From: Arenicellales bacterium
Lineage (GTDB): Bacteria; Pseudomonadota; Gammaproteobacteria; Arenicellales; JAJDZL01
Direction: 5' to 3'
Length of the DNA stretch: 64,000 nucleotides
NCBI GenBank assembly: GCA_965243645.1
Contig: CBDEVD010000006.1
Span: 9,570 to 73,569, forward strand
Positions 39,759 through 59,656 of this stretch are shown here, piece after piece. The translations under genes were made by a program, and so were the position numbers. The stretch's first letter is position 1. Every line of letters starts with the position of its first letter. Under the pieces are notes generated by a model. It saw only the letters and a program-made list of their open reading frames with translations. It ran no database searches and was not told where the DNA came from.

Positions 39759-39773
39759 AGAGAAGGTAGAAAA

Positions 39774-41234
39774 ATGATCAAAATACATTTGAACGATCAG
39801 TCGTTATTTCGTCAACAGTGTTACATCAATGGCCAATGGGTGGATTCTGAAAGCGGTGCAATTTTTGAAGTAACCAATCCGGCGAACGGTGCGGTAATTG
39901 GTACGGTGCCAAAGTTGGGGGCTGCTGAGACAAACAATGCAATTGACGCAGCGGAAGTTGCCTTTCAGAGTTGGCGCAAGAGCACTGCAAAACAGCGATC
40001 GCTGTGCCTGAAAAAACTGGCAGAATTAATGCTGGCGAACGCAGATGATCTCGCAAAATTGATGACCATGGAGCAGGGTAAACCGCTGGCGGAATCGCGC
40101 GCAGAAGTCGGCTATGCGGCTTCGTTTTTTGAGTGGTTTGCCGAAGAGGGCAAACGAATCTATGGTGATGTGATTCCTCACCAGCTGCCGGACCGGCGTA
40201 TCGTGGTCATCAAGGAACCGATTGGTGTGTGCGCAGCTGTGACGCCGTGGAATTTTCCGGCAGCAATGATTACTCGCAAGGCAGGACCGGCACTTGCAGC
40301 AGGGTGTACGATTGTCATCAAACCAGCCAGCAGTACACCGTATTCAGCGCTTGCACTTTGTGAATTGGCTGAGCGAGCCGGAATACCGGCCGGGGTAATC
40401 AATGTTGTAACCGGCTCATCTTCCGAAATCGGTGGGGCATTGACTGCCAGTGATAAGGTCCGGAAGCTTTCATTTACAGGCTCGACAGCCATCGGTAAGA
40501 TTTTGATGAAACAGTGTGCAGACACCGTCAAGAAAGTATCCCTTGAATTGGGCGGCAACGCACCGTTCATCGTATTTGATGATGCTGATATTGATGCCGC
40601 GGTTACTGGTGCAATTCAATCAAAGTATCGAAATGCCGGGCAGACTTGCGTATGCGCGAATCGAATTCTGGTACAGGACTCTGTATATGATGAGTTTGCC
40701 GAAAAATTTGCTGCTGCAGTCACCCAGATGAAAGTTGGTGATGGACTCGAAAATGGCACAGAAATTGGACCGTTGATTGATGTTGCTGCGGTAGAGAAGG
40801 TTGAAGCCCACATCGAAGACGCGGTTGCAAAGGGAGCCCAAGTCGCAGTCGGGGGTTCGCGACATACACTTGGTGGTACTTTCTTTGAACCAACGGTCAT
40901 TAAGCACGTCGAAGTCAACATGGATGTTGCCAATGAAGAGACCTTTGGTCCACTTGCACCACTGTTTCAATTCGGCAGTGAAGCAGAGGCAGTCGAGATG
41001 GCGAATGCCACTGAATTTGGATTGGCTGCGTACTTCTACAGTCGCGATATCGGCCGGGTTTGGCGCATGTCGGAGGCACTTGAATATGGAATCGTCGGGG
41101 TCAATACCGGAATTATCTCAACGGAAGTCGCACCATTTGGCGGCATGAAGGAATCCGGTGTCGGGCGTGAGGGCTCGAAGTACGGCATCGATGATTATGT
41201 CGAGATCAAGTACCTGTGTATGGCAGGTCTTTAA
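39774..41234 (+). CDS. NAD(P)-dependent succinate-/glutarate-semialdehyde dehydrogenase (GabD/DavD-like ALDH)
   Basis: 486 aa: ...VTPWNFPAAMITRK..., LELGGNAPFIVF, ...GQTCVCANR (catalytic Cys), EETFGP. Confidence 0.85.
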   Translation: MIKIHLNDQSLFRQQCYINGQWVDSESGAIFEVTNPANGAVIGTVPKLGAAETNNAIDAAEVAFQSWRKSTAKQRSLCLKKLAELMLANADDLAKLMTMEQGKPLAESRAEVGYAASFFEWFAEEGKRIYGDVIPHQLPDRRIVVIKEPIGVCAAVTPWNFPAAMITRKAGPALAAGCTIVIKPASSTPYSALALCELAERAGIPAGVINVVTGSSSEIGGALTASDKVRKLSFTGSTAIGKILMKQCADTVKKVSLELGGNAPFIVFDDADIDAAVTGAIQSKYRNAGQTCVCANRILVQDSVYDEFAEKFAAAVTQMKVGDGLENGTEIGPLIDVAAVEKVEAHIEDAVAKGAQVAVGGSRHTLGGTFFEPTVIKHVEVNMDVANEETFGPLAPLFQFGSEAEAVEMANATEFGLAAYFYSRDIGRVWRMSEALEYGIVGVNTGIISTEVAPFGGMKESGVGREGSKYGIDDYVEIKYLCMAGL

Positions 41235-41267
41235 AGTTTATGGCTCATTGAATCGGGTGGAGCAATC

Positions 41268-41873
41268 GTGATGGAGACATTGCCTGCCTTTGGTGAACAA
41301 CGTGATCCATTTCGGCTCTTCTCCGAGTGGTTTGATGCAGCTCGCGCGAACGAATTCATCGAACCTGCGGCAATGACTGTGTGTACGGTTGGATCAAATG
41401 GCAGGCCATCAGCGCGGCAAGTGCTGCTGAAGTCACATGGGCCGGAAGGTTTTGTGTTCTATACCAACTACAGCAGCCGCAAGGCGCAGGAACTGAGTGC
41501 CAATCCCTATGCAAGTGCGGTGTTATGGTGGGATCGACTACATCGTCAGGTCAGAATTGAAGGACGTGTTGAAATCGCAGCAGCCACAGTTTCTGATGAG
41601 TATTTCGCAACACGTCCAAGAGGCAGTCAAATTGGTGCCTGGGCATCTCCCCAAAGCCAGGTGTTGGACAGTTTTGCTGCGCTCAACGAAAAATTCAATG
41701 AAGTCGAAACAAATTTTGTCGGCAAACCGGTTACACGTCCGGATTATTGGGGTGGATACATCATCATTCCTGATTGTATTGAGTTTTGGCAAGGTCGCCG
41801 CGACCGGCTGCACGAGCGGTTAAGATTTTCCATTGATGGAACGGGTTGGCAAACCGCAATTCTGGCACCGTGA
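41268..41873 (+). CDS. pdxH: Pyridoxamine 5'-phosphate oxidase
   Basis: 201 aa: ...[30 protein letters not shown]..., [13 protein letters not shown]..., [17 protein letters not shown]. Confidence 0.85.
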
Positions 41874-44843: not shown

Positions 44844-46403
44844 ATGCGATCATTCAATACCGCCGGTCCCGTAATACCGGAAGATGACTATCACATTCCG
44901 CCACTTGAGCGCATCGATCGCCATGAAGTATTTGCATTAATTGAAAAGAAGAGATACTTCATTTTGCACGCTCCGCGCCAGACCGGCAAAACATCGGTGC
45001 TGCGCGCACTGATGGACGAGTTGAACGAAACGGGCCGCTATCGCGTCGCGTATGCCAACATCGAAGGGGCGCAAGCGGCACGGGAAGACACCTACGTTGC
45101 AATGCAGGCGATTCTGGGTGTTATATCCGCATCGGCACGAGACCACTTGCATGATCTTTTTGTACAAGAGTGCTTTGCCGGTATTCTTGACACTTACGGC
45201 CCGCACCATGCTTTGCGTGAAGTGTTGAGCCGCTGGTCGGCGTCGGATTCTCGGCCGCTGGTGGTGATGATCGATGAGATTGATGCGCTAATCGGCGACA
45301 CGCTGATTTCGGTGCTGCGCCAGTTGCGTTCTGGTTATACAGAGCGGCCAAAGCATTTTCCCCAATCCGTGATTCTGTGCGGTATCCGCGATGTGCGCGA
45401 CTACCGCATTCATTCGAGCGCCGACAAGACGGTGATCACTGGCGGCAGTGCGTTCAACATCAAGGCGGAGTCTCTGCGTCTGAGTGATTTCAGTGAAGCC
45501 GAGACGCGTGCGCTTTTGTTGCAGCATACGCAAGACACAGGCCAAAGTTGGAGCGAGGCGGCACTGGCTGAGGTGTGGCGTTCAACCTCTGGGCAGCCAT
45601 GGCTGGTTAATGCGCTGGCGAGCGAGGCCCTCAAGAAGGTCAGGAACCTTGCTGTGACCATCGAACACAACGATGTCATCGATGCCAGGGAGGAGTTGAT
45701 CTTAAGGCGTGACACACACTTGGATCAGTTGGCGGACAAGTTGCGCGAGGCGCGCGTCAAGCGGGTTATTGAACCGTTGGTTACCGGCGACAGACCATTG
45801 GAGAACTTTCTTCCGGATGATATGCAGTATGTTCGTGACCTGGGGCTGATTGCCAGGGACAAGCCAGTTCGCATTGCCAATGCGATCTACCGTGAGGTGA
45901 TACCGCGCGAGTTGATTACATCCAATGACGAGGCGCTGCCGTATCAGACTGCGTGGTTCGTGGAGGACGGACAGCTAATGATGGACCAATTGATGGAATC
46001 GTTTCAGACCTTTTTCCGCGAGCACTCGGAGCACTGGGTGAAGCGATTCGACTACCTTGAGGCAGGCCCTCAGCTGCTGTTGCAGGCGTTCTTGCAGCGC
46101 GTGATCAACGCCGGCGGTCGGATTGAACGTGAGTATGGGCTGGGCCGGATGCGCACGGATCTGCTGGTTGAATGGGGGGAGCACCGGCAAAGGGAGGTGA
46201 TTGAGTGCAAGCTGCGTCGCAACGGCATGCAGCGCACAATTGACGAAGGATTGAAGCAGATTGATGCGTATATGGAGCGCTGCGGGACTGACTGCGGGCA
46301 TCTGGTGATATTCGACCGTTCGGAGGAGCGGTCCTGGGATGAGAAGGTGTTCAGGTGCGAAGCGTCCGTAGGCACACGCCAGGTGACTGTCTGGGGTATG
46401 TGA
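44844..46403 (+). CDS. ATP-binding protein: N-terminal AAA/P-loop NTPase fused to a C-terminal PD-(D/E)XK-like nuclease domain
   Basis: 519 aa: FNTAGPVIPEDDYHIPPLERI...YFILHAPRQTGKTSVL (Walker A), VVMIDEIDAL (Walker B). The C-terminus is GRIEREYGLGRMRTDLLVEW...REVIECKL (a D...E-x-K pattern). The gene is visibly more GC-rich than its neighbours. Confidence 0.7.
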   Translation: MRSFNTAGPVIPEDDYHIPPLERIDRHEVFALIEKKRYFILHAPRQTGKTSVLRALMDELNETGRYRVAYANIEGAQAAREDTYVAMQAILGVISASARDHLHDLFVQECFAGILDTYGPHHALREVLSRWSASDSRPLVVMIDEIDALIGDTLISVLRQLRSGYTERPKHFPQSVILCGIRDVRDYRIHSSADKTVITGGSAFNIKAESLRLSDFSEAETRALLLQHTQDTGQSWSEAALAEVWRSTSGQPWLVNALASEALKKVRNLAVTIEHNDVIDAREELILRRDTHLDQLADKLREARVKRVIEPLVTGDRPLENFLPDDMQYVRDLGLIARDKPVRIANAIYREVIPRELITSNDEALPYQTAWFVEDGQLMMDQLMESFQTFFREHSEHWVKRFDYLEAGPQLLLQAFLQRVINAGGRIEREYGLGRMRTDLLVEWGEHRQREVIECKLRRNGMQRTIDEGLKQIDAYMERCGTDCGHLVIFDRSEERSWDEKVFRCEASVGTRQVTVWGM

Positions 46404-47048
46404 AACACGCTTGCATGGCGGGTGGTTCACAGCGAGTATGAGTGGCACAGGTGTTTCATTTCACACCTTTAACACGGATTACTCAATTGCTGTCTTACTG
46501 AATTTCCTTTCATCTGGAATTTGTGCGTTTGCCAAAGCGTCAATCCAAAGTAATCAGCGCTTTGCGATGCAACCGAATACGGTGAGAACGTAATTCTTGG
46601 GTATGGATGGAACCGTAGTATTAGTCCAAATGTCAGAGATTCGGAATAGGCCATTCAGGTAGTATGAGATGCGCTGTCGCATTGAGGCTTGGTTCAGCGT
46701 GTTTGATCGGAATTGACACAGCGTGCTAACAACTATTTCCAGCGTCAGTGAACACCAGTTTAATCGGGACGATGACTTGCAATCGCCTTGGTTTTCGATG
46801 CGATTACCGCCTACCACATCAATGACCACACACTATGGTGCGTAAAAATTCCGAGGTGCTTGCCAACAGTGTGTAGCGGTTGATTAGATCGAATGTCTGA
46901 ATGCCTTGAATACTTCTGTAGCCGTGCATAACAGCAGGGCATTCGAAACTCTGGCAAACCTCAGAGTAAAGAGAGCAAGCAAAATTGTCTATATAATCGC
47001 AGCAACTAGACTTAGCAATTGCAAAAATTTGATTTAAAGAGAAATTTA

Positions 47049-48173
47049 ATGGAGGGTGGAACCTTGCGACACTTTAACGGAAAAAACCTTGTATTGGGGA
47101 CAGTGTTTTTCGCGTTCTCAGTATTTACTGGAAGTGCATATTCTGAAGGGACCTTGAACGTCTATAACTGGGCGGAATATATTGGTGAAGAAACGATTGC
47201 CAATTTTGAGAAAGAATTCAACATCGACGTTACCTACGATAACTACGATTCTGTCGAAACGGTTGACGCCAAATTACTGGCTGGCAATAGTGGTTATGAT
47301 GTTGTGTCTCATTCTGGAACACAAATTGCCAAATTAATTCCGACCGGTGTAATTACTCAATTAGACCTTTCGAAACTTCCCAACATGAAGCACATGAGTG
47401 CGGAAGTTATGGCCCAAGTTGCCTCGAATTGGGACCCGAACAATGATCATATTGTTCCTTATATGTGGGGAACTCATGGCGTCACCTACAACGAAGAGTT
47501 CATTCGAAGCATTTACCCGGATGCACCAATCGGTTCAATGGACCTCATTTTTGATCCTGTCCATATGGAGAAGATCGCCGAATGTGGTGTGTCATTTCTG
47601 GACTCACCAACCGATGTGATACCGATGGCGCTTGCACATTTGGGATTGGATCCAAGTTCGAAAAATGCAAAGGACTATCGGGCTGCTGAAGAAATGTTGC
47701 TCAAAATCCGACCTTACATTAAAACTTTTGATAACTACGCTTACCAACGTATGGTTCAAAAGGAGTTCTGTTTGGCCGTTACCTGGGGTCCGGATGGATT
47801 GCTTGCTATTTCAACTGCCGAAGAGGCTGGTGCGGATGTTACACTTGATTTCTTTTTACCACCCGGTGAAGGCAAAGCCAATCTTTGGGTTGATGGCTGG
47901 GTCATCCCGTCTGATGCTGCCAACGTAGAAAACGCTTATCTGTTTTTGAACTACATGATGCGTCCTGAAGTTGCTGCTGGGGATAGTAATTACACCTGGT
48001 ACGCAACAGCAAACGCCGATGCGATTCCATTAATCGATCCGGCTGTAACCGGCAATGAAGCGAGTTTTCCCTCACCGGAATCGGTTGCTAACATGTACAC
48101 GCTGGCAGTCATTCCCCCGAAAGTACAACGCGCCCGCACGCGCACCTGGACAAATTTCAAATCAGGTAACTGA
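47049..48173 (+). CDS. Polyamine (putrescine/spermidine-type) ABC transporter periplasmic binding protein, PotF/PotD-like
   Basis: The track ORF begins at TTG 47019; I prefer ATG 47049 (MEGGTLRHFNGKNLVLGTVFFAFSVFTGSAYSEG, a signal peptide). The body is LNVYNWAEYIGEETI.... Confidence 0.8.
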   Translation: MEGGTLRHFNGKNLVLGTVFFAFSVFTGSAYSEGTLNVYNWAEYIGEETIANFEKEFNIDVTYDNYDSVETVDAKLLAGNSGYDVVSHSGTQIAKLIPTGVITQLDLSKLPNMKHMSAEVMAQVASNWDPNNDHIVPYMWGTHGVTYNEEFIRSIYPDAPIGSMDLIFDPVHMEKIAECGVSFLDSPTDVIPMALAHLGLDPSSKNAKDYRAAEEMLLKIRPYIKTFDNYAYQRMVQKEFCLAVTWGPDGLLAISTAEEAGADVTLDFFLPPGEGKANLWVDGWVIPSDAANVENAYLFLNYMMRPEVAAGDSNYTWYATANADAIPLIDPAVTGNEASFPSPESVANMYTLAVIPPKVQRARTRTWTNFKSGN

Positions 48174-48254
48174 TTGAACTTTGTCAAATCATGAAGTGGG
48201 GTAGCGGTAGGGTAGACTTACTTTGGATCCAGTAGGATAAAGGAGGGAACTGCA

Positions 48255-49415
48255 TTGAACACGCAAGTCGAATCAAATGAACTATTTGCGGATCAGCCGT
48301 GGCTCGACCCCGAAGCAAAGCCATTTGTTCAAATTCGGGGAATAACCAAGACTTTTGGATCATTTACCGCAGTATCCGGCGTCGATTTAGACATCTACGA
48401 AGGGGAACTATTTTCTCTACTGGGTGGTTCCGGATGTGGAAAATCGACACTATTGCGGATGCTTGCCGGGTTTGACCCACCCACTTCTGGCAATATTTTC
48501 ATAGATGGCGTTGATATGGCGGGAGTGCCGCCATATCAACGACCCGTTAATATGATGTTTCAGTCCTATGCTTTGTTTCCACATATGACCGTTGAGCAAA
48601 ACATCGGTTATGGACTCAAACAGGATCGTATTGCAAAAAATGAAATAGCGGACCGTGTCGAAAAAATACTGTCGATCGTTCAATTAACTCAATTTTCCAA
48701 GCGCAAACCTCACCAGTTGTCCGGTGGACAGCGCCAACGAGTTGCGCTGGCGCGGGCCTTGGTGAAGAATCCCAAAGTGCTGCTGCTGGATGAACCCTTA
48801 GGTGCCCTTGACAAGCGGCTGCGCGAACAGACGCAGTTTGAATTGATGAATATTCAAGATCAGCTCGGTATCACTTTTATCGTGGTTACTCATGATCAGG
48901 AAGAAGCGATGACACTTTCGACCAGAATTGCAGTGATGGATCAGGGACGCTTTTCCCAGATTGGCACACCAACCGATATCTATGAATATCCAGAAACGCG
49001 CTTTGTCGCGAATTTCATTGGTAGTGCCAATATGTTCGAAGGACGCGTCGTTGAAAACGGAGCCGATTATGTGATCGTGAAAAGCGTTCGCTCTGAAATT
49101 TCCTTTTACATCGATCACAGTGCGGCTGTTCGTGAAAATACTGCTGTATGGGTAGCGCTCCGACCGGAGAAAATTCTGGTCTCTGCGACGGCACCGCAAA
49201 CTGCGTCTGAACACAACGCGGTTGAAGGTGTCGTTGATGACATCGGGTATCTTGGTAATTTTTCGATCTACAAAATCAGGTTGCCAAACGATCGAATCAT
49301 TGAAATTACTCATCCCAATCAGTCTCGTCCCAAGCACGGGAGTCATCTCGCGAAGTGGGAAGAAAAAGTTTATTTAAGTTGGGAAGCACACAGTCCGGTG
49401 CTTCTGACCAAGTAA
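48255..49415 (+). CDS. Polyamine ABC transporter ATPase, PotA/PotG-like
   Basis: 386 aa. The TTG start lies 7 nt after AGGAGG. Motifs: LLGGSGCGKSTLLR (Walker A), LSGGQRQRVALARAL, LLLDEP. Confidence 0.9.
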   Translation: MNTQVESNELFADQPWLDPEAKPFVQIRGITKTFGSFTAVSGVDLDIYEGELFSLLGGSGCGKSTLLRMLAGFDPPTSGNIFIDGVDMAGVPPYQRPVNMMFQSYALFPHMTVEQNIGYGLKQDRIAKNEIADRVEKILSIVQLTQFSKRKPHQLSGGQRQRVALARALVKNPKVLLLDEPLGALDKRLREQTQFELMNIQDQLGITFIVVTHDQEEAMTLSTRIAVMDQGRFSQIGTPTDIYEYPETRFVANFIGSANMFEGRVVENGADYVIVKSVRSEISFYIDHSAAVRENTAVWVALRPEKILVSATAPQTASEHNAVEGVVDDIGYLGNFSIYKIRLPNDRIIEITHPNQSRPKHGSHLAKWEEKVYLSWEAHSPVLLTK

Positions 49416-49466
49416 TTCACCTGATCGGGTTGCAGATCAGTCGTTCATTGAGAGGAGAAAGCAGGT

Positions 49467-50381
49467 TTGAAGAGTTGGTTTAGAAGCTGGTCTCAATCTT
49501 CAACTGCATGGCAAACCGTCGTTGTTGCGATTCCTTTTGTGTGGTTGCTGATTTTCTTTTTGATTCCGTTTTTCATTGTCCTCAAGATCAGCTTGGCAGA
49601 ATATATCCTGGCCAGTCCGCCTTTTTCGACCCTGTTTGCTGTGGCGGATACCGGTGCGCTCTATATGACGCTGATTTTCGATAATTTTGCCTATCTTTGG
49701 GAAGACAGTCTTTATCTGGACACTTATCTGAATTCGCTGAAAATCTCAGTTACTTCAACGATCTTTTGTTTGTTGGTTGGTTATCCAATCGCTTACGGTA
49801 TCGCACGTTCAACACCGACCGCAAAGAAAATCCTGTTGTTGATGGTGATTTTGCCATTTTGGACTTCATTTTTACTGCGAGTCTATGCTTGGATCGGGCT
49901 GCTGGCAGATCAGGGAACAATCAACAACTTTCTCATTTGGATTGGCATCATTGATCAGCCGATCAAGATGCTTTATACCGATTTTGCTGTGTACGTCGGA
50001 ATCGTCTACACCTATCTTCCATTTATGATCCTGCCTTTGTTCGCGAGCATTGAAAAACTGGATATGACATTGCATGAAGCAGCGGCAGATTTAGGCGCGC
50101 GACCGTTTACCATATTTCGTTCCATTACGATTCCCATGACCATGCCAGGTATTATCGCGGGGTCATTGCTGGTTTTCATTCCAGCGACCGGTGAGTTTGT
50201 CATTCCTGACTTGCTTGGCGGCGGTAATGTATTGATGATTGGTAAAGTTTTGTACAGTGAATTCAATTCAAACCAGGACTGGCCAATTGCCTCGGCTGTG
50301 GCAGTCGTACTGTTGATCCTGTTGGTTGTACCAATGATGATTTATCAAAAGTACCAGGCCAAAGAGTCAAGCGGGCAGTGA
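49467..50381 (+). CDS. Polyamine ABC transporter permease, PotB/PotH-like
   Basis: 304 aa and multi-TM, with the EAA loop ...LHEAAADLGARPFTIFRSITIP. Confidence 0.85.
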   Translation: MKSWFRSWSQSSTAWQTVVVAIPFVWLLIFFLIPFFIVLKISLAEYILASPPFSTLFAVADTGALYMTLIFDNFAYLWEDSLYLDTYLNSLKISVTSTIFCLLVGYPIAYGIARSTPTAKKILLLMVILPFWTSFLLRVYAWIGLLADQGTINNFLIWIGIIDQPIKMLYTDFAVYVGIVYTYLPFMILPLFASIEKLDMTLHEAAADLGARPFTIFRSITIPMTMPGIIAGSLLVFIPATGEFVIPDLLGGGNVLMIGKVLYSEFNSNQDWPIASAVAVVLLILLVVPMMIYQKYQAKESSGQ

Positions 50382-50391
50382 GGCGATCGTT

Positions 50392-51261
50392 GTGAGCTGG
50401 AAACGCGCACCATTCATGTTTTCCCTGCTGTGCCTGGGATTTGCATTCTTATACATTCCAATCTTTCTCCTGATCTTCTATTCATTCAATTACTCAAAGG
50501 TTGTACCGGTTTGGGGCGGATTCTCGGTTCGCTGGTATGTTGAGTTGTTTCAGAGTGAAGAGATTTGGCGGTCAGTGATTCTCAGTCTGGAAATCGCCAT
50601 CATGAATGCGACATTTGCAACCTTACTCGGCGCACTTGCAGGCATTGCGATGGCAAGGATCAGAAAATTTCGCGGGCGTACATTATTTTCAGGAATGATC
50701 TCTGCGCCGTTAGTCATGCCGGAGGTGATTACCGGGCTATCGTTGTTATTGTTGTTTATTACGATGGCTGAAATGATTGGCTGGCCACCGCGCGGGATTA
50801 CAACAATTACGATCGCGCACGTCACTTTTTCATTGGCCTATGTTGCAGTGATTGTGCAATCCAGACTGGTTGGCGTTGATGAATCCCTGGAAGAAGCAGC
50901 CCAGGACCTTGGCGCTAGGCCCTTTCGGGTATTAATTGACATCACTGTCCCGCTGCTGGCACCTGCCTTGGTTGCTGGCTGGTTGCTGGCGTTTACACTG
51001 TCGCTCGACGACCTCGTTATTGCAAGTTTTGTATCGGGACCTGGTGCAAACACCCTGCCAATGCTGATTTACTCGCGAGTCAAACTCGGTCTTAAGCCCG
51101 ATGTCAATGCGCTGGCCACAATCATTATCGTGATCGTAACCATTGGGGTCTGTATTGCAGGCTGGATATTGTCGCGCCAGGAGCGACAACGAACCTTGGA
51201 TATGCAGTTGGCAGAGTCCGAAAAATACGACTTCGGTGAGGAGCAAAAACAGGTCAGCTAA
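50392..51261 (+). CDS. Polyamine ABC transporter permease, PotC/PotI-like
   Basis: 289 aa and multi-TM, with the EAA loop ...LEEAAQDLGARPFRVLIDITVP. Confidence 0.85.
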   Translation: MSWKRAPFMFSLLCLGFAFLYIPIFLLIFYSFNYSKVVPVWGGFSVRWYVELFQSEEIWRSVILSLEIAIMNATFATLLGALAGIAMARIRKFRGRTLFSGMISAPLVMPEVITGLSLLLLFITMAEMIGWPPRGITTITIAHVTFSLAYVAVIVQSRLVGVDESLEEAAQDLGARPFRVLIDITVPLLAPALVAGWLLAFTLSLDDLVIASFVSGPGANTLPMLIYSRVKLGLKPDVNALATIIIVIVTIGVCIAGWILSRQERQRTLDMQLAESEKYDFGEEQKQVS

Positions 51262-53068
51262 TCACCATATCGTCATTGACTTCAGCGATTGTGCCGTGCG
51301 GTGGTATATTTTTCAGTTTCGCCACCGGCAATCGAGCTTGAATCGCGTGATGGTAGGCTCGAATCCCGGTTTCCGCAGTTGCAGACAGTGTCCACTGTGG
51401 GTAGACTGAAGAATTCATACCTTGCTGCATGGATTCCATATAAAAATAATCTTCACTCATTGTTTGGATATTGATGCGACGGTTCAGGTACCGCAACGCT
51501 TCAATGCCTTTACGGCTGTCTGGCAGTGCATAGCACTTGCCAATTACTTTTGTACGAGTCAAGCTGACCGGTATGGTCATGTAAACTTCCATCATTTCCG
51601 GATAAAGCGCTAAGACAAGATTTGGAAAAACACCGATGTACTGCCACAAGTCTTGGCGTTCTTGGGAAAGGTGATCGAACCTTGGCATCAGATTTCTGTA
51701 GTTCTTTACGCTCCACAGATTGCCGACCCGCTCATTAAAAACCCCCTTGGAAACCGGTATGTCGCTGACAAACAAATCAGTGTATGAGCGTCCATATAGT
51801 TGCTGTAGCGCCGGATGTCCGATGGGCACGTGATAACCTTCATTGTCGATATCGTGGTAAATTTTCCAGTTGACCGGTAAGCTGTCTGTCTCATTGACTA
51901 CATACTGTGGCGGTTCCTGGTAGGGTTGTAGTTCTTGCAGGCGATACTCCTTTATTTCGTCTTCGATTGGCTGGAGTTGTGAGTCTATCGTTGGACCGCC
52001 ACCAACAAAGCGAATGAAGATAAAACCATGCCAGATTTCACATTCAATCAGTTTAAGCGAATGTCGTTTCGGATTGATGTCAGGAAATCCCTCTTTACCA
52101 GGTATGAACTGAAGATTGCCGTCAAAATCATAGCGCCAGCCATGAAATGGACAGGTCAGCGATTGGCGACAGTGACCTTGTCCGACCAAAATAGTTGAGC
52201 CACGATGTCGACAAATATTGTGAAAAGCATTAATTTCGCCTGCTTTATTCCTTACGACCAGGGCACGTTCTCCAAAACCTTCAAATGTGAGGTAGTCACC
52301 GGCTTTAGCGATCTCACTGACATGTCCAACCAGCATCCAGTTTGGTTTAAAGAGATGTTCAATTTCCAGGTCGAAGAACTCTTGGTTCTGGTAAGTCCAA
52401 AACGGCAGCAAATCAGACAGCTGATCGGAATCATAGCGTACTGGTTGTTGGGATTTAGATTTTGTTGCACCCAATCCAATACTGGCGAGATAGTGCTCAC
52501 ATTGTTCAATGGCAGCCAATGGGTCAAGTTTCGTATTCGACATCAACGCATGCTGCCAGATGCTATCAGTCAGGCCTTGCAGGGTGAGTGCCAAAACTTG
52601 TGAATTAGTCGTGGATTTTCCAGTCAGCTTTAACCATTCTTTAATTCCGTTCTGAACCAGTTCGGTTTCGAACTTTTCGACTTTTGTTAGTAAGGTTCGA
52701 TATTCCTTATTGGCGTGATACTCGCTGCGAAACGCATACCAGGCGGCAATCTTATTTTTGACGTAAATTCGTTTGTCAAAACAGCTGTGTATGTAGCCAT
52801 GAATCTTTTGCTCCGCGGTATCTGCATGCTTTAACCACTGATTCAACACCTGCACATACTCATCCAACAGATGATTGAGTGTGTCAAGTAACAGATTCTT
52901 TTTTGACTTGAAGTAGAAATTAACAATCCCCGCCGACATGTCGCTTCTTGATGCAACTTTGGCTAAAGTGACATTCGATATACCATCCTGATAGATCGAT
53001 TCAATGGTTGCTGAGATCAACTCTTGGCGGCGGACTTTGTGATTAAATTCTTGTGCAGATGGATTCAT
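51254..53068 (-). CDS. Fusion protein: N-terminal TetR/AcrR-family HTH regulator domain (aa 1 to ~200) plus a complete Rieske non-haem-iron oxygenase alpha subunit (aa ~220 to 604)
   Basis: Single uninterrupted 604-aa ORF. The TetR HTH is ISNVTLAKVASRSDMSAGIVNFYFKSKKNLL. The Rieske motif is C286-R-H288-x17-C306-P-F-H309 (NICRHRG...LTCPFHGW). The mononuclear iron motif is DNEGYHVPIGHP. Confidence 0.8.
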   Translation of the reverse strand: MNPSAQEFNHKVRRQELISATIESIYQDGISNVTLAKVASRSDMSAGIVNFYFKSKKNLLLDTLNHLLDEYVQVLNQWLKHADTAEQKIHGYIHSCFDKRIYVKNKIAAWYAFRSEYHANKEYRTLLTKVEKFETELVQNGIKEWLKLTGKSTTNSQVLALTLQGLTDSIWQHALMSNTKLDPLAAIEQCEHYLASIGLGATKSKSQQPVRYDSDQLSDLLPFWTYQNQEFFDLEIEHLFKPNWMLVGHVSEIAKAGDYLTFEGFGERALVVRNKAGEINAFHNICRHRGSTILVGQGHCRQSLTCPFHGWRYDFDGNLQFIPGKEGFPDINPKRHSLKLIECEIWHGFIFIRFVGGGPTIDSQLQPIEDEIKEYRLQELQPYQEPPQYVVNETDSLPVNWKIYHDIDNEGYHVPIGHPALQQLYGRSYTDLFVSDIPVSKGVFNERVGNLWSVKNYRNLMPRFDHLSQERQDLWQYIGVFPNLVLALYPEMMEVYMTIPVSLTRTKVIGKCYALPDSRKGIEALRYLNRRINIQTMSEDYFYMESMQQGMNSSVYPQWTLSATAETGIRAYHHAIQARLPVAKLKNIPPHGTIAEVNDDMVIS

Positions 53069-53405
53069 AAAAATATGTTGAATTTTTATTAAATGGGATT
53101 GAATTATTATATAGACAAGTAAGTCATCGGGTCTTTGGATTGCATATCAATATGATTCGAATGAGTTTTAAATAAACTTTTATTAACAATAATATGGAGT
53201 TAATATGGGTTAACTTTACTGATGTCTTCTGACGAGTGGAACAACTATATGCGGTCGGTCATCGTAAGGTGTGTTTCAACTCGCTTGGGAGGCGTTGAGA
53301 CAGGCTGAAATTGAGCGATCATTTTTCTGGCAATAGACAAATCCGCCCGGCTGCATTACGAGTCAAATCAGGTGAGATTCAATAGAGGGTGAAAAAAGGG
53401 TGGTT

Positions 53406-54674
53406 TCAGATCAAGTGGTCCTCCAGCGGAAAATCAGACAGGACAATCGGTCCGTTTGCAGTTATCCATACGGGTTGTTCGAGCTTAACGCCTTCATGTC
53501 CGTCTTTTTCGCCAACATAGCTTTCAATACAGACAACCATGTTCTCTTCTAATACGCCATCGTATGCGCCATATTGTTCATCTTCTTGGTACCATAGGAA
53601 GGGATATTCAACACCGAGACCGCACCCATGGCCAACGTCGGCATATCGATTTGCAAGATATTTTTCCGGCAATTGGTATGATTTAGCAGAGTATTCAAGA
53701 AAAGACAGACCAGGTGTTAGTAACTCGATATTGGTTTCCAGTTGCGCCAGGGACGTTGCATATAGATGTCGTTGCTCATCTGTTGCTTTGGCATCTCCGA
53801 TGATCCAACTTCGAGAAATATCGTTGTAAAATCCCATTGGGCCGACCAAATCGGTGTCAAAGGAAAGGAAGTCTCCATTTTCAATCACTCGGTTACTGGT
53901 TTCGTGAAACCATGGATTGGTGCGTGGACCGGATGTCATCAAGCGTGTTTCGGGATATTCGCCTCCAAGTCGAATACTCTGCGCGAGTAGTATCGACAGA
54001 GCTTGCTGTTCTGTCATTCCAGGCTGTACTTTTTCTCGTAAATCATGCATCGCGGCTTCGCAAGACGCAAGTGACAGTCGCAAAGCTCGAATTTCTTCGA
54101 CTGACTTGATCGATCGGGCATGTTCCATGACCTTTTTCGCATCGGTTGGTACCAGTCCACAGTCAATCAGCGCCAGCGCGGTATCCACATCCAGTCGATC
54201 GACAGCCACGTTGCGGTTATCACCCCCGTATGTCCTGACAAGGTCATCGATTTCCTGCGCCCACTTGCTGACAATTTCCGCGGTACGGTAGCCCGTTACA
54301 AAATAATCTGTTGACCAGGCAGCTCGCACGCTGTCAATGGTTTCTAGCCCCTTGAGTAGATGTATGCCAGTCGGCAATTCGAACATAATCGACGGACCGG
54401 ATGTGAGTATCAGTGCATAGCGACAGAAATTGTGCATGGTCCAGACCTGCATGTTCCGCGAACCATTTGCATAGCGAATATTGATGGGATCGAATAACAG
54501 GATCGCCGCCAAGTCATGGCGCGCCGCATGTGATCGCACTGAATTCAAACGGTACTGACGAATGGCCGCTTCGTCAATTGGTTGATTGTTATTCAGAGGG
54601 TCAATCAAGATATTACCGGTCAGGTAGACCGCTGCAGATAAACTGTTCGCATCAAAATTCGCGCCCGATGACAA
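53406..54674 (-). CDS. M24-family metallohydrolase fold protein (creatinase / ectoine-hydrolase DoeA / DddP / Xaa-Pro peptidase-like)
   Basis: 422 aa with a creatinase-like N-domain. Pita-bread metal ligands appear at the expected positions: FDTD, YNDISR, VGHGCGLGVEYP, VCIESY, KLEQ. Confidence 0.7.
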   Translation of the reverse strand: MSSGANFDANSLSAAVYLTGNILIDPLNNNQPIDEAAIRQYRLNSVRSHAARHDLAAILLFDPINIRYANGSRNMQVWTMHNFCRYALILTSGPSIMFELPTGIHLLKGLETIDSVRAAWSTDYFVTGYRTAEIVSKWAQEIDDLVRTYGGDNRNVAVDRLDVDTALALIDCGLVPTDAKKVMEHARSIKSVEEIRALRLSLASCEAAMHDLREKVQPGMTEQQALSILLAQSIRLGGEYPETRLMTSGPRTNPWFHETSNRVIENGDFLSFDTDLVGPMGFYNDISRSWIIGDAKATDEQRHLYATSLAQLETNIELLTPGLSFLEYSAKSYQLPEKYLANRYADVGHGCGLGVEYPFLWYQEDEQYGAYDGVLEENMVVCIESYVGEKDGHEGVKLEQPVWITANGPIVLSDFPLEDHLI

Positions 54675-54823: not shown

Positions 54824-56227
54824 TTAACTCGACGCGGCAGCACTGACAGCGGCCGGCCTGATTTCATCGTGGACCGCATCCAGTGATTGACTCAATGCAT
54901 CAAAAAGGTCGTGAACCTGTTGTTCGGTAATAATCAATGGTGGACAGATTCCGACTGAATCGCCCGATGGCAGGGCGCGTAAGATCAAACCATTGGTCAG
55001 GCATTTTTGATATACCTGGATTGCGATTTTAAGATCCGTATCAAAGGGTGTTTTGGTGTCTTTATTTGCGACCAGTTCAATGGCACCAATTAAACCGGCA
55101 CCGCGGGCCTCACCCACCAATGGATGTGATCCAAGTTCTTGCAAACGACTTTGGAACGGTTGCATGACATTACGAACATGGTCCAGAATGTTGCGCTCTG
55201 CATAAATATCCAGTGTTTCGAGTGCCACTGCGGCACCGACCGGGTGACCGGTGTAGGTAAATCCAGTGCCAAAAACGCCATGGCGATTACTGGCTTCGGC
55301 GATGACCTGAAAAATCTCTTCGGAAATCATGGTCGCGCCAATTGGAATATAGGCCGAGGACAGTTGTTTGGCGCAGGTAACCATGTCCGGTGCCACAATG
55401 CCGAACGTATCGCATCCCCACTGGTTTCCGGTACGGCCAAATCCATTGATGACTTCGTCGGCAATCAATAGAATGTCATACTGTTTGAGTACTTTTTGTA
55501 TTTTTTCAAAATATGTTTTCGGCGGCGGAATCACACCACCGGCACCCATTAAGGGCTCCGCGATCAACGCGGCAATGGTTTCAGGCCCCTCGGCCACAAT
55601 CAGTTGCTCCAATTCATCTGCGCGGCGAGAAGCAAATTCTTCTTCGGACTCACCTTCCTCACCAAAGCGATAGTAATGCGGTGCGCCGGTTTGTTTGAAC
55701 CGGTCAAGTGGCGCATCAAACGCTTCTTGGATCACCGGAATTGCTGTCAAACTTGTACAGGCAATGGTAACACCGTGGTAGCCTCTGTGGCGGGAAATGA
55801 TTTTCTTCTTCTCTGGACGTCCCAGCGCGTTGTTGTAATACCAGGCAATTTTGATTGCTGAATCGACCGCTTCTGATCCCGAAGTTACAAAGTATGCCTT
55901 CGACATCGAATCCGGTGCGATGCCGATCAGTCGATCAGCAAGTTCGGCAACAACCGGTGCAGTGCGCCCGGCAAAACTGTGGTTGTAAGGTAGAGTTTCC
56001 AACTGGCGCTTGGCTGCTTCAACCAGACGCGGTTCACTAAAGCCAAGCGAGACACACCACAGTCCTGCGAGACCCTCAATAAATTTGTCGTTGTTTTCAT
56101 CCCAAATATAGATGCCCTCACCGCGTACATAGGTTTTCGGGCCGGTTTGTTGATGAACAATGTGGTTGGTGAATGGATGTAAATTCGACTTGATATCTTT
56201 TTCTGCTATAGATGAGAGTTGCATCAC
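54824..56227 (-). CDS. Class III (omega) aminotransferase, PLP-dependent
   Basis: 467 aa: ...SGSEAVDSAIK..., LIADEVINGFGRTG..., and VTCAKQLSSAYIPIGA (the PLP-Lys context). Confidence 0.85.
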   Translation of the reverse strand: MMQLSSIAEKDIKSNLHPFTNHIVHQQTGPKTYVRGEGIYIWDENNDKFIEGLAGLWCVSLGFSEPRLVEAAKRQLETLPYNHSFAGRTAPVVAELADRLIGIAPDSMSKAYFVTSGSEAVDSAIKIAWYYNNALGRPEKKKIISRHRGYHGVTIACTSLTAIPVIQEAFDAPLDRFKQTGAPHYYRFGEEGESEEEFASRRADELEQLIVAEGPETIAALIAEPLMGAGGVIPPPKTYFEKIQKVLKQYDILLIADEVINGFGRTGNQWGCDTFGIVAPDMVTCAKQLSSAYIPIGATMISEEIFQVIAEASNRHGVFGTGFTYTGHPVGAAVALETLDIYAERNILDHVRNVMQPFQSRLQELGSHPLVGEARGAGLIGAIELVANKDTKTPFDTDLKIAIQVYQKCLTNGLILRALPSGDSVGICPPLIITEQQVHDLFDALSQSLDAVHDEIRPAAVSAAASS

Positions 56228-56272: not shown

Positions 56273-57808
56273 TTAAACCAGTGCGTCTGGAAACGAGTCC
56301 TTACGCATTGTAATGAAATCGTTCAATGCAGCGTCGATAGATTGATCAAATTCCGGAAGTTGATAGTTTTCAAGCATTTTCTTCCAAATTGCGTTGGCTC
56401 GTTGGGTTGCATCAAGCGCTCCGTCGGCTTCCCACTGCTCAAAACTGTTATTATCCGCAGTCGTTGAACGGAAAAACGCGGTTTCAAAATTTTCTTGTGT
56501 ATGTGCACAACCGAGAAAATGGTTGCCGGGTCCGACTTCGCGCAAAGCGCTTAATGCCTGGCCATTTTCGGACGTGTCGATTCCATTGAGAAAAGTTTGC
56601 ATAATGCCTGCCTGGTCTGCATCGAGAATAAACTTTTCGTATCCCATCACCAAGCCGCCTTCAAGCCAGCCGGCTGTATGCAACATGAAATTGACGCCGG
56701 CTAACATGGCGGTTTGCAGCGTGTTGGCCGATTCATAGGCAGCTTGAGCATCCGAAATTTTGGCGGCGCAAAGTCCGCCACCGCTGCGAAACGGAACGCC
56801 CAGTCTGCGTGCCAGCTCTGCGCAGATATAGAGGACTAAGGAGGGTTCCGGGGTTCCGAACGTCGGTGCGCCTGACTGCATGGAAATTGAACTGCTGAAG
56901 GTGCCGAAAATGACGGGTGCACCGGCACGTACCAATTGTGCGAATGCCATACCGGCCATTGCCTCGGCCAGAATCTGGGTGCAGGTGCCGATTATTGTTA
57001 CCGGCGACATTGCACCAGACAGAATAAACGGTGAAACTACGGTGCCCTGACCATGCTTGGCGTAAACTTTGAGCGCGGCGAGCATGGTATCGTCAAACGT
57101 CATTGGCGAGTTGACGTTGATGAGTGAAATAACACAGGCATTTGCATCCACAAAATCATCACCGAAGACGATCTTGGCCATATCCACAGTATCCTGCGCA
57201 CGCGCACCGCTGGTAACTGACCCCATGAATGGTTTGTCGGAATACTTAAGGTGGGAGTACACCATATCCAAGTGTCGTTTATTCACTGGAAGATCAACAG
57301 GTTCACAAACCGTGCCACCGGAGTGGTGTAACGCGGGGGACATGTATGTCAGCTTGACAAAATTACGAAAATCTTCGATGGTGGCATAGCGTCGACCCTC
57401 GTCCAGGCTGCGAACAAAGGGCGGACCATAAGCTGGTGCGAACACGGCGGTATCTTTGGAAATGTGTACATTCTTTGCCGGATTCCTGGCGTACTGGATA
57501 AACTCTGCAGGCGCATTGGATTGGATGATTTGACGCAGCATACCGGGTTCAAAGCGGACGCGCTCGCCGTCCAGTGATGCACCTGCCTGGCGCCAGATAT
57601 CCAGTGCTTCTGGGTCGTCGCGAAATTCAATGCCGATTTCCGCCAGCACCTGGTCTGCATTATTTTCGATCAGTGCGAGTGTTTGTTCCGGTGCGACACT
57701 GTAGACAGGCACTCGCCGTTTGACGTAGGGTGGTGCGGCTGTTGAGATCTTTGATCGTTCGGCCTGGCGCGCAGATCGACCGCCGGATCGAGTTCGTCTT
57801 GCATTCAT
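56273..57808 (-). CDS. MttB-superfamily methyltransferase, non-pyrrolysine type (quaternary-amine methyltransferase-like)
   Basis: 511 aa, colinear with the trimethylamine methyltransferase family (...LALIENNADQVLAEIGIEF..., ...NVNSPMTFD..., ...LHTAGWLEGGL...). There is no in-frame TAG. Confidence 0.75.
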   Translation of the reverse strand: MNARRTRSGGRSARQAERSKISTAAPPYVKRRVPVYSVAPEQTLALIENNADQVLAEIGIEFRDDPEALDIWRQAGASLDGERVRFEPGMLRQIIQSNAPAEFIQYARNPAKNVHISKDTAVFAPAYGPPFVRSLDEGRRYATIEDFRNFVKLTYMSPALHHSGGTVCEPVDLPVNKRHLDMVYSHLKYSDKPFMGSVTSGARAQDTVDMAKIVFGDDFVDANACVISLINVNSPMTFDDTMLAALKVYAKHGQGTVVSPFILSGAMSPVTIIGTCTQILAEAMAGMAFAQLVRAGAPVIFGTFSSSISMQSGAPTFGTPEPSLVLYICAELARRLGVPFRSGGGLCAAKISDAQAAYESANTLQTAMLAGVNFMLHTAGWLEGGLVMGYEKFILDADQAGIMQTFLNGIDTSENGQALSALREVGPGNHFLGCAHTQENFETAFFRSTTADNNSFEQWEADGALDATQRANAIWKKMLENYQLPEFDQSIDAALNDFITMRKDSFPDALV

Positions 57809-57838
57809 GAGTTAAGTCCTTGGCAAATTCTGCACGGT

Positions 57839-59656
57839 CTATTGGGGTCTGGGAAATCGGTTTGAACGTCGATAGGGATAGACATCTTCCAGAATCCCCG
57901 CACGAATGAGTCGTTGTTTTTCCTGCCAGAATTCCGGAGTCATGAGATCGCCATGCAGTTGCGCAAAGTGGTTTTTGATTAGCGGGTGAACAAGGAAGTA
58001 CTTTTCAAATTCTTCTGGAAAAACATCGTCTTCACCAACAGAAAACCACGGCTCGGTTGCCATGTCATCAAATGGGTCGGAGGACTGCGGAAACTTCCTG
58101 ATTTTACATTCATCGAGATAGCGAATTTCATCGTAGTCGTAAAACACCACGCGGCGGTTGCGTGTCACACCAAAATTCTTAAGCAGCATATCGCCAGGAA
58201 AAATATTGGCAGCTGCCATCTCTTTGATCGCGTCGCCATAGCCGCGCGCGAAGTACTTGGTTTCCTCTTCGGTTTCAAAATTTTGCAAGTACAAATTAAG
58301 TGGGATCATTCGATGTTCAATATAGACATGCTTCATGACCAGCACATCATCTTCGATGATGACAGAGTGCGAGCAGTTGGTTTGCAGGTTGGCCAGCAAA
58401 TCTTTATCGAAACGGTGAAGCGGCAAGGCGACTTCGGAGTACTCGAGCGTATCGGCCAGTCTTCCAACTCGATCGTGTTGCTTGACCAAGTGATATTTTT
58501 CGATGACTGTCGATCGCGACAGTTTCTTTGGCGGTTCAAACGAGTCTTTGATCAGCTTGAAGACATAGTTATAGGATGGCAGGGTGAAGACCATCATTAC
58601 CATACCGCGTGTCCCTGGCGCTTCGATGAACTGGTCGGTTGAATGTGACAGGTGATGTAAGAAGTCGCGATAGAATTCAGTTTTACCTTGCTTGTGAAAA
58701 CCGATCGCTGAGTACAGGTCTGCCTTGCTCTTGGCCGGCAGTATTCCCATTAAAAAATTCACAGTTGCCGAAGGCACTTGCGTATCAACCATGAAATACG
58801 CTCTTGAAAAGCCAAATATGGCATCCAGGTCCGCAGGGTCCAGCAGCAAGGCATCGACATACAGTCCACCATTGTCATTATTGAGGATAGGAACGATGAA
58901 TGGCGTTACCTGATAATCATTGATGACGCGCCCAATCAGGTAAGCTGCCTTGTTTCTGAAAAACAGCGATGACAGTACATCGATTTGAAAATTCAGTGAG
59001 ACTGAGCGTTTATTGCGCGGAATGACTTTGCCCAGATGGATGAGCATTTGCCTGACATCATGGCTTAGATTTTCGAAATCGATTTTGAAGTTCAGGTCCT
59101 TCAGAATGTCATGAATCGAGTTGCGAAAACCGCGGGTGGCCGGATAATAGGAGCGGTAAACTGGATTGTCTGCTTGAATGTATTCGGTAGAAACCGACGA
59201 TCTTACAAAGATATGATTGTTTTTAAAATAGCGGCGGTGAAAGAGCTTGCAAAAAACAGAGTTATAAAAGCTTTCTGCGAGCTCGGGTTGCTGGTGGTCT
59301 AAAAGTAGACGAATGTAGCGAGTTTTAACGTCTTCCCAAAGTGGCTTGTCCAGTTCCGAAATTTTCAGTTGGGCCCGTAATATGTCGACTGTTTCCTGAA
59401 CACGCTTATCGTAGAAGTGGATGCGCTGTCTGGCTGATTCACGTGCTTCATGCCATTTTGCCTGTTCAAATCTTTCTTGTGCACCCGCGGTGATTTCTTG
59501 AAATAAGGTGATATGGTTTTCAAAACCATCCAAAATAGTGCGGGCTATTTTCTGTGCGCGCTTTGGTTTGCTGCGCGTGAGGTTGGTCTGCCAAGCACTT
59601 TTTTTAGAGCTTGATGCTTGGTCAAAATAAATTGCTCTTGCCGATTTAGCCATCAC
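57839..59656 (-). CDS. aceK: Isocitrate dehydrogenase kinase/phosphatase
   Basis: 605 aa. It is colinear with E. coli AceK from memory: ...IARTILDGFENHITLFQEITAGAQERFEQAKWHE..., FRNKAAYLIGR, GMVMMVFTLPSYNYVFKLIKD, ANIFPGDMLLKNFGVTR, VFYDYDE. Confidence 0.9.
   Translation of the reverse strand: MMAKSARAIYFDQASSSKKSAWQTNLTRSKPKRAQKIARTILDGFENHITLFQEITAGAQERFEQAKWHEARESARQRIHFYDKRVQETVDILRAQLKISELDKPLWEDVKTRYIRLLLDHQQPELAESFYNSVFCKLFHRRYFKNNHIFVRSSVSTEYIQADNPVYRSYYPATRGFRNSIHDILKDLNFKIDFENLSHDVRQMLIHLGKVIPRNKRSVSLNFQIDVLSSLFFRNKAAYLIGRVINDYQVTPFIVPILNNDNGGLYVDALLLDPADLDAIFGFSRAYFMVDTQVPSATVNFLMGILPAKSKADLYSAIGFHKQGKTEFYRDFLHHLSHSTDQFIEAPGTRGMVMMVFTLPSYNYVFKLIKDSFEPPKKLSRSTVIEKYHLVKQHDRVGRLADTLEYSEVALPLHRFDKDLLANLQTNCSHSVIIEDDVLVMKHVYIEHRMIPLNLYLQNFETEEETKYFARGYGDAIKEMAAANIFPGDMLLKNFGVTRNRRVVFYDYDEIRYLDECKIRKFPQSSDPFDDMATEPWFSVGEDDVFPEEFEKYFLVHPLIKNHFAQLHGDLMTPEFWQEKQRLIRAGILEDVYPYRRSNRFPRPQ

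Follow-up and report, generated by a model that had tools for sequence, protein, structure and literature searches.

Fusions between an enzyme and a transcription factor are rare, and they are informative about how metabolism can speak directly to gene expression. Among the described cases are the enzyme-repressor proteins PutA, BirA and NadR, known as trigger enzymes; the DNA-binding fold of PutA is a ribbon-helix-helix. BetI is a choline-responsive TetR-family repressor of the bet genes. To our knowledge, and in the literature that we searched, there is no study of an oxygenase fused to a TetR-family repressor. Here, we have analysed a 64,000-nucleotide stretch of DNA (the window, in whose numbering positions are given unless another locus is named) from an Arenicellales bacterium (assembly GCA_965243645.1, contig CBDEVD010000006.1, positions 9,570 to 73,569 of the forward strand), in which one gene encodes a BetI-type TetR repressor followed by the alpha subunit of a Rieske oxygenase. 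Using searches of protein databases, structure prediction and comparison of related loci, our investigations demonstrate that this fusion represents a conserved family. Its components are already known, and so is the principle of fusing an enzyme to its regulator; the combination of TetR with Rieske and the oxygenase subfamily itself are uncharacterised.

The first-pass annotation of the window had described a single 604-residue reading frame in which a TetR regulator is joined to a complete Rieske oxygenase, and both the open reading frame (ORF), which runs from ATG to stop, and its Pfam domains bear this out (Table 1). The TetR_N match encloses the helix-turn-helix (HTH) string that was quoted at the time, and it is followed by an all-helical C-terminal ligand-binding and dimerisation domain, as expected of the TetR family. 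In the second module, the C-x-H-x17-C-x2-H motif of Rieske alpha subunits and the iron motif D408-x-E410-G-Y-H413-x4-H418 are found at the positions first proposed. With D540 as third iron ligand beside H413 and H418, they make up a 2-His-1-carboxylate iron site with an acidic bridge (E410). The protein thus has the architecture of a trigger enzyme, with enzyme and DNA-binding regulator in a single polypeptide. It resembles PutA in that a DNA-binding repressor, likely autoregulated, is combined with a catabolic enzyme whose pathway the repressor would control. It differs from PutA in having a TetR HTH rather than a ribbon-helix-helix, in its enzyme chemistry and in a regulator that possesses its own ligand-binding domain.

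The best NCBIfam models for the whole protein are the glycine-betaine monooxygenase GbcA (NF058607, 135.3 bits against a cutoff of 670) and BetI (TIGR03384, 107.1 bits against 201.3), and a second BetI model (NF001978) gives 101.8 bits against its cutoff of 118. Since these scores stay below the equivalog cutoffs, the fusion protein is related to GbcA and BetI and is an equivalog of neither. Among NCBIfam regulators the BetI models are the best match to the N-terminal 200 residues, whose C-domain belongs to PF13977, in agreement with the earlier description of this module as BetI-like; unlike BetI, it is covalently joined to an enzyme. A structure prediction, which had been proposed as a check, was obtained with AlphaFold2 and the family alignment, and gave two well-folded modules with a mean predicted local distance difference test (pLDDT) of 89.7 and a predicted template modelling score (pTM) of 0.65. 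Nine helices are predicted with high confidence in residues 3-196, the TetR C-domain being all-helical with pLDDT above 88, and pLDDT falls below 50 solely at residues 1-5 and 203-213. In this model the protein is made of two independently folded modules on a flexible, disordered tether, which the pTM fits.

A search of 5.8 billion proteins returned 2886 relatives, from which the best 120 clusters (100% to 40% identity) were inspected. Full-length proteins of about 600 residues make up 116 of these 120 clusters, nearly all annotated with TetR, Rieske and Ring_hydroxyl_A, and several members lie on contigs of 1.4-4.4 Mb; because of these two observations, the fusion goes far beyond what chance or artefact would give. 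In an exhaustive HMMER scan of 1.84 billion representatives clustered at 50% identity, about 16 were full-length fusions, the most distant at 31% identity, and the scan also revealed a more divergent second fused set of 530-590 residues with the identical four domains. Such divergent BetI-TetR, Rieske and Ring_hydroxyl_A fusions occur in locus L091 (6714-8378, minus strand), beside an unfused oxygenase of the main family, and as proteins P0197, P0202, P0226, P0266 and P0161. The named sources of the fusion are Arenicellales, Acidiferrobacterales, 'marine bacterium B5-7' and metagenome-assembled genomes (MAGs) of unclassified Gammaproteobacteria or Proteobacteria, the closest named relatives being Arenicellales MAGs at 50-56% identity; fused loci are also present in assembled metagenomes, some of them labelled marine. 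Databases file the family as 'transcriptional regulator BetI', 'Rieske 2Fe-2S domain-containing protein' or 'SRPBCC family protein', and JGI names both halves. The earlier statement that no characterised TetR-Rieske fusion is known holds for the searchable literature (of which coverage is partial), for the PDB and for dedicated NCBIfam models, but the protein is not a singular oddity: it belongs to a conserved family hidden under generic names. The oxygenase subfamily is likewise without a description in the literature searched, which covered Rieske proteins with TetR, BetI, fusion and polyamine themes.

Conservation was examined in an alignment of 51 diverse family members, and regional mean identities to the window protein were calculated from 115 members. 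The Rieske ligands C286, H288, C306 and H309, the bridging E410 and the iron ligands H413, H418 and D540 are invariant, as is the stretch N400-W-K ... D406-x-D408-N-E-G-Y-H-V-P415. In the HTH, G29, S45, L59 and L60 are invariant, and T34, G47, I48, F51, Y52, F53 and K56 are at least 90% conserved; just after the linker, W224 and Y226 are invariant and L221 and T225 reach at least 90%. Mean identity amounts to 55% in the HTH region (residues 12-62), 55% in the Rieske domain and 51% in the catalytic domain, with 30% in the TetR C-domain and 16% in the linker. Judged from these alignments, both modules are under purifying selection, and both look functional, in line with the earlier claim that the oxygenase is not a degenerate domain.

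We also found the two modules separated in several relatives. Locus L012 encodes a 400-residue oxygenase, 72% identical, in matching synteny (AceK, MttB, aminotransferase, Rieske gene, convergent ABC transporter), with no TetR-like sequence anywhere in its 21 kb. In L098, a 394-residue oxygenase gene directly follows the aminotransferase gene, and a translated remnant of residues 181-220 is left upstream of its start, from which we conclude that the TetR part was deleted. In L099, a DDE transposase of an insertion sequence (IS) is inserted at about residue 186-188, just before the linker, so that one side is left with a TetR ORF and the other with a Rieske ORF. These three loci nest within the main fused clade in a neighbour-joining tree of the oxygenase module (built without support values), and their states are therefore secondary losses. 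The same tree supports one main fused clade with nested losses and has the distant fused proteins L021-L023 and L065 branching apart from it, so that fusion may have occurred once or more than once. In L023, the fused gene (791-2662) is directly followed by an unfused oxygenase paralogue (2701-3903).

Given the unfused L012 and L098 and the IS-split L099 in matching syntenic context, the oxygenase appears to be an enzyme in its own right. Distant unfused relatives, which share the active-site motif DxDNEGYH with the fused proteins, often have a stand-alone BetI-type TetR gene in the locus (130-185 bits against the family TetR profile), directly after the oxygenase gene in one case and divergent from it in another. 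On this comparison, the stand-alone TetR would be the cognate type of regulator, and regulator and oxygenase form an old functional pair that has become fused and unfused. The unfused oxygenases have the same motif, the same transporter, aminotransferase and amine-oxidase partners and the same type of TetR as the fused ones, and they differ in that regulator and oxygenase are separate genes; they show the components before fusion or after fission.

Upstream of the fusion genes, several lineages carry a recurrent palindrome, ATTGAAT-N4-ATTCAAT (Table 1). With this pattern, which was derived from the tested sequences themselves, a site with at most two mismatches was found within -200 to +10 in 6 of 13 non-redundant lineages; local shuffles (n = 2000) gave a mean of 0.19, and none reached 6. 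Site density is likewise uneven: the 2.7 kb of DNA preceding the fusion genes hold 8 sites, and the remaining intergenic DNA of the same loci, 20 kb in all, holds 2. In the window, the candidate operator is composed of the units ATTCAAT (53104-53098), ATTTAAT (53094-53088) and ATTCAAC (53083-53077), whose starts are 10 and 11 bp apart; the first directly abuts the -10 element, and the second and third together form the two-mismatch palindrome. A centre-to-centre spacing of 11 bp suits a TetR dimer. Among the four closest relatives, upstream conservation is limited to a single island, TATATAAT-nn-ATTCAAT; at the promoter of the fusion gene, no complete -35/-10 pair was called by a consensus promoter scan. 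The E. coli betI-betT spacer, the single specific genomic target of BetI (PMC5934670), contains ATTGATTGGACGTTCAAT, in which the near-identical half-sites ATTGATT and GTTCAAT flank GGAC in the same 7-4-7 geometry, and the footprinted BetI1 box of Ruegeria reads ATTGACG/CGTCAAT (PMC12442346). The candidate palindrome, overlapping the promoter of the fusion gene itself in several lineages, suggests an autoregulation, which the fusion would share with BetI together with its setting in an amine-catabolic locus.

Two other kinds of match were set aside as operators. Hits with two or three mismatches within coding regions (at +708 of the fusion gene and in the binding-protein and permease genes) are conserved coding sequence. 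The exact 13-mer TTGTCTATATAAT, present at 46985-46997 (plus strand) and 53106-53118 (minus strand) in the promoters of the binding-protein gene and the fusion gene, was rejected since alignment with relatives shows that its common core is TATATAAT, the conserved -10 element of both promoters. The two copies share five identical bases beyond this core, and the flanks in L101 are also near-identical at both promoters.

By sequence and by fold, the solved structures nearest to the oxygenase module are CntA (carnitine monooxygenase) and Stc2 (stachydrine demethylase), both of which had been named by the first-pass annotation, and the uncharacterised 3N0Q. The matches to CntA and Stc2 (E of about 1e-28 to 1e-30; template modelling score, normalised to the target, of 0.75-0.84, with 0.83 for CntA) have an identity of just about 21-23% over the structural alignment. 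E410 corresponds to CntA E205, so that the bridge is a Glu where aromatic dioxygenases have an Asp; bridge and iron-site residues align to E205, H208 and H213 of CntA and to the ED motif of Stc2, with the same H-x4-H plus Asp site. As for CntA and Stc2, the architecture is alpha-only, with no beta-subunit gene near the fusion gene; Glu bridge and alpha-only architecture are features of the Group V quaternary-ammonium Rieske monooxygenases (CntA, Stc2, GbcA). The differences lie around the iron. A Cys pair surrounds the first iron His in CntA (C206/C209, important for activity) and in Stc2 (C202/C205) (PMC10952381), whereas the E-C-Y-H-C of CntA is replaced in the fusion family by an invariant E-G-Y-H-V (G411, V414). 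Likewise, the CntA Tyr203 that holds carnitine (PMC10952381) aligns with the invariant Asp408, which together with the equally invariant D406 adjoins the iron site. Furthermore, the fusion family carries an N-terminal repressor, unlike CntA and Stc2, and no reductase of the CntB or GbcB type adjoins the fusion gene.

The missing Cys-x-x-Cys, the Asp in place of Tyr203 and the low GbcA score do not favour betaine or carnitine, which were among the substrates suggested by the first-pass annotation. When neighbouring genes were clustered across 99 loci, the commonest partners, alike for fused and unfused members, were transporter components, the aminotransferase and two families of flavin amine oxidase. 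Based on the acidic pocket residues and on the PotF-type transporter, the transaminase and the amine oxidases, the substrate is more likely a protonated amine (a polyamine or an N-alkylated omega-amino compound) than a betaine. The neighbours had indeed been offered as a clue to the substrate: the polyamine-type transporter is conserved family-wide, but MttB, AceK and the dimethylglycine (DMG)/sarcosine dehydrogenase-like genes are confined to one clade. No betA, betB or betT was found in the window or in related loci, so that the genomic association expected of BetI is absent, and choline is not indicated as the inducer. By analogy with CntA and Stc2, we favour a reaction in which hydroxylation beside the nitrogen would bring about N-dealkylation or C-N cleavage. 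The family is an uncharacterised branch of CntA/Stc2-like Rieske oxygenases that many marine bacteria possess and that is linked to PotF-type transport, transamination and amine oxidation.

With moderate confidence, we infer that the fusion protein is an enzyme-repressor that regulates its own synthesis, which is the most likely reading of these data. The BetI-like module (residues 1-200), with its intact HTH, would bind the BetI-box-like palindrome over its own core promoter; in loci where the palindrome lies in a short control region shared with a divergent amine-oxidase gene, that gene would be repressed too. A small amine entering the TetR pocket would cause the repressor to leave the DNA. 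The oxygenase module (residues 221-604), after a disordered linker of about 20 residues, is predicted to be a competent alpha3-type Rieske monooxygenase with a Glu bridge. Its substrate, a polyamine-like or N-alkylated omega-amino compound, would be imported by the adjacent PotF-type ABC transporter and hydroxylated at the carbon next to nitrogen, with electrons coming from a reductase encoded elsewhere. The products of the ensuing N-dealkylation or C-N cleavage would pass to the neighbouring omega-aminotransferase or amine oxidase, and in the window genome also to a succinate-semialdehyde dehydrogenase (SSADH). The tethered oxygenase would consume the inducing amine or its precursor. As repressor and enzyme are made 1:1, the inducer would be destroyed by the very polypeptide that senses it, a built-in negative feedback loop by which the levels of inducer, repressor and enzyme would be locked together.

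Several observations weigh against this enzyme-repressor reading. The origin of the operator pattern makes its statistics optimistic, and the window lineage conserves just one clean half-site next to the -10 element, its best full site having two mismatches in AT-rich DNA. Neither the ABC transporter nor the AceK-MttB-aminotransferase string is preceded by a convincing palindrome; the predicted regulon is thus the fusion gene itself only, and the benefit of a dedicated repressor is less obvious. The TetR_C_6 match of the window protein is marginally under the Pfam cutoff (23.8 against 27 bits), a cutoff that most of its relatives pass. No reductase is co-encoded in any locus examined, as the first-pass annotation had noted for the window: none of the FNR, GbcB or ferredoxin type is found among window ORFs of at least 150 residues, and none lies within 10 kb in any related locus examined. 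A reductase may be encoded elsewhere. The substrate assignment is drawn from context only. Finally, TetR proteins form dimers and Rieske alpha subunits assemble in threes, a symmetry mismatch that the fusion must resolve, which it may do as a hexamer of two trimers clasped by three TetR dimers, with unpaired modules, or as a polymer.

This mismatch also bears on a trigger enzyme in the stricter sense, in which occupancy, turnover or redox state of the oxygenase would control DNA binding by the TetR module, and transcription would report flux or the supply of oxygen and electrons beyond the ligand in the TetR pocket alone. We regard such allosteric coupling, an idea of the first-pass annotation, as the main rival reading, if on the unlikely side. 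Contact between the modules is conceivable in the higher-order assembly that a fusion of dimer and trimer imposes, conservation is high in the residues that directly follow the linker, and the covalent fusion has been kept across 31-100% identity, which suggests more than co-expression. Tight coupling is weakly disfavoured by the disordered, poorly conserved linker and by the complete ligand domain that the TetR module keeps; in addition, the TetR of unfused relatives is a separate protein of the same type, and the oxygenase survives alone after loss of TetR. By analogy, coupling of catalysis to DNA binding as in PutA may occur, but it is not needed, because TetR has its own ligand domain and the oxygenase persists alone in nested relatives. 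An elaboration of this idea that we hold to be unlikely is a trigger enzyme built as a D3 hexamer (three TetR dimers, two alpha3 trimers) or as an open lattice, whose binding to the ATTNAAT repeat of 10-11 bp would be set jointly by the amine and by redox state or turnover; it would integrate substrate, oxygen and electron supply into the transcription of its own gene.

It is quite unlikely that the TetR module has ceased to be a transcription factor and become a ligand-capturing, allosteric or oligomerising appendage, for example one that holds a pair of trimers together as a hexamer. L012 and L098 do without the regulator part, the other promoters of the locus yielded no operator and the TetR_N match is weak in some members, as such a co-option would have it; against it, conservation within the TetR module is highest in the HTH (55%, compared with 30% in the C-domain), which keeps the classic signature residues, and several independent lineages have a BetI-box-like palindrome at the promoter. 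The opposite view, a TetR regulator in which the Rieske module has lost its catalytic role and senses redox state, oxygen or iron, seems to us very unlikely. Iron-sulfur domains serve as sensors in other regulators, and the lack of a reductase partner near the gene in any locus would be explained, but the 2-His-1-Asp site, the bridging Glu and the Rieske ligands are all invariant, the closest TetR-less relatives sit in the same catabolic context, and the unfused subfamily shares DxDNEGYH together with transporter, aminotransferase and amine-oxidase partners. That two adjacent genes were joined by a sequencing, assembly or frameshift error is an a priori possibility only, and so improbable that it can be set aside: more than 100 sequence clusters, drawn from separate assemblies and from several bacterial orders, have the same continuous frame, and genuine disruptions look different, as the IS in L099 and the deletion in L098 illustrate.

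The family offers a natural experiment, in which fused genes, an IS-split gene, genes that have lost TetR and relatives with a separate regulator stand side by side. It also poses a structural puzzle, a dimeric module joined to a trimeric one. Given its wide occurrence in marine bacteria and its link to amine transport, transamination and oxidation, the oxygenase branch probably represents a missing step in the ocean turnover of polyamine-like or N-alkylated amines. The TetR module and its operator could serve as a biosensor once the ligand is known.

Table 1. Coordinates of the fusion gene, its domains, its promoter elements and its neighbours in the window, with the candidate palindromes of related loci
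Feature	Position	Strand	Basis or remark
Fusion gene (BetI-type TetR repressor + Rieske oxygenase alpha subunit)	51254..53068	-	ORF, Pfam domains, conserved family
TetR_N helix-turn-helix domain, residues 17-61	52886..53020	-	PF00440, 33.8 bits, cutoff 24
BetI-type TetR C-terminal ligand-binding/dimerisation domain, residues 89-197	52478..52804	-	PF13977 (TetR_C_6), 23.8 bits, cutoff 27
Inter-module linker, residues ~201-220, Ser/Lys/Gln-rich	52409..52468	-	Low family identity, low pLDDT
Rieske [2Fe-2S] domain, residues 243-326, ligands C286/H288/C306/H309	52091..52342	-	PF00355, 70.9 bits
Catalytic non-haem iron domain (Ring_hydroxyl_A), residues 397-580	51329..51880	-	PF00848, 102.7 bits
Candidate operator, three ATTNAAT units	53077..53104	-	Between -10 element and start codon
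Window palindrome ATTTAATAAAAATTCAAC	53094-53077	-	2 mismatches to ATTSAAT-N4-ATTSAAT; between -10 and start codon
-10-like hexamer TATAAT of the fusion gene promoter, within TATATAAT	53106..53111	-	Conserved in L101, L102, L013
L001 palindrome ATTGAATGATAATTCAAT			0 mismatches; fills exactly the 17-bp spacer between TTGACA and TATCAT
L015 palindrome ATTGAATGTCTATTCATT			1 mismatch; just upstream of TATAAT, in region shared with amine oxidase gene
L082/L019 palindrome ATTGAATAAACGTTCAAT			1 mismatch; upstream of fusion gene
L014 and L016/L018 palindromes			2 mismatches; upstream of fusion gene
ABC transporter, PotF/G/H/I-like, convergent	47064..51261	+	Pfam, NCBIfam
Transporter binding protein (TTG start)	47064-48173	+	
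Transporter ATPase	48255-49415	+	
Transporter permease	49467-50381	+	
Transporter permease	50392-51261	+	
M24 (creatinase/DddP-like) protein, between aminotransferase and fusion gene	53406..54674	-	PF00557; DddP model (DMSP lyase) 318 bits, cutoff 600
Class-III (omega-) aminotransferase	54824..56227	-	PF00202; NF004767 664.7 bits, cutoff 517
Non-Pyl MttB-family methyltransferase	56273-57808	-	Upstream string 56273..59656
AceK (isocitrate dehydrogenase kinase/phosphatase)	57839-59656	-	Upstream string 56273..59656

The neighbourhood of the fusion gene agrees with its first description, which listed a polyamine-type ABC transporter, an MttB-family protein and DMG/sarcosine dehydrogenases; by Pfam, the latter are two DAO-FAO_M-GCV_T proteins. 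The 8-bp convergent overlap between the last permease gene and the 3' end of the fusion gene was confirmed. In NCBIfam, the binding protein is PotF-like at 314 bits (below cutoff) and the ATPase passes the model of the polyamine potA subfamily (417 bits, cutoff 355.6). For the binding-protein gene, TTG 47064 is the most likely start codon; the product then has 369 residues as in relatives, and GGAGGG precedes the start at 47051-47056; the listed start of this ORF (47019-48173, plus strand) is probably too early. The convergent arrangement of transporter and fusion gene recurs in nearly all fused loci whose flanks are long enough, L082 being the exception.

On the other side, the omega-aminotransferase is the conserved upstream partner, in 12 fused and 17 unfused related loci. 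It closes a tightly spaced same-strand string, AceK-MttB-aminotransferase, with AceK at its head, which is conserved in all clade-A relatives (L001-L006, L012-L014, L099, L101 and L102); AceK is an unexpected partner in an amine or methylamine cluster. The M24 gene is lineage-specific: it was at one point taken to be unique to the window, which is wrong, as L101 and L102 also have one, and it is present in these three only. Fused loci fall into two types of context. In type A (the window, L001-L006, L013, L014, L101 and L102), AceK, MttB and the omega-aminotransferase lie upstream, with DMG/sarcosine-dehydrogenase-like genes nearby. In type B (L015, L016, L018 and L082), a divergent flavin amine oxidase gene lies about 80-110 bp away, with or without an aminotransferase.

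The window also encodes the SSADH mentioned above (TIGR01780, 733 bits against a cutoff of 646), within about 10 kb of the fusion gene. It is part of a trio of acyl-CoA dehydrogenase, SSADH and PNP-oxidase-like genes at 38574-41873 (plus strand), about 10 kb from the fusion gene. In L098 (15405-18736) the same trio directly adjoins the transporter, an adjacency which suggests that trio and fusion gene act in the same pathway.

Other long or composite proteins came up among the relatives. L050 (1225 residues) and L055 (574 residues) were discarded as fusions, having only Rieske and Ring_hydroxyl_A domains, and are probably over-extended ORFs; P0143 (1342 residues, with ABC exporter domains) looks like a gene-calling run-on. 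In L051 (5353-6981, minus strand), a 542-residue ORF combines a SAM-dependent methyltransferase domain with a BetI-type TetR, and is either a second enzyme-TetR fusion or a run-on ORF.

Between the transporter and an 804-residue DMG dehydrogenase-like gene lies a variable island (44844-46403, plus strand), occupied in the window by an AAA ATPase and in relatives by IS1595/HEPN genes (L013), a helicase with DUF559 (L012), or a transposase with TerB/BrxC defence-type genes (L014). Two PPK2 genes are found at 15541-16452 and 26761-27603. Transposase genes of the IS110, UPF0236, Transposase_31 and DDE_Tnp_1 types lie at 1861-2955, 20143-21438, 21389-22423 and 25132-26298 of the window.

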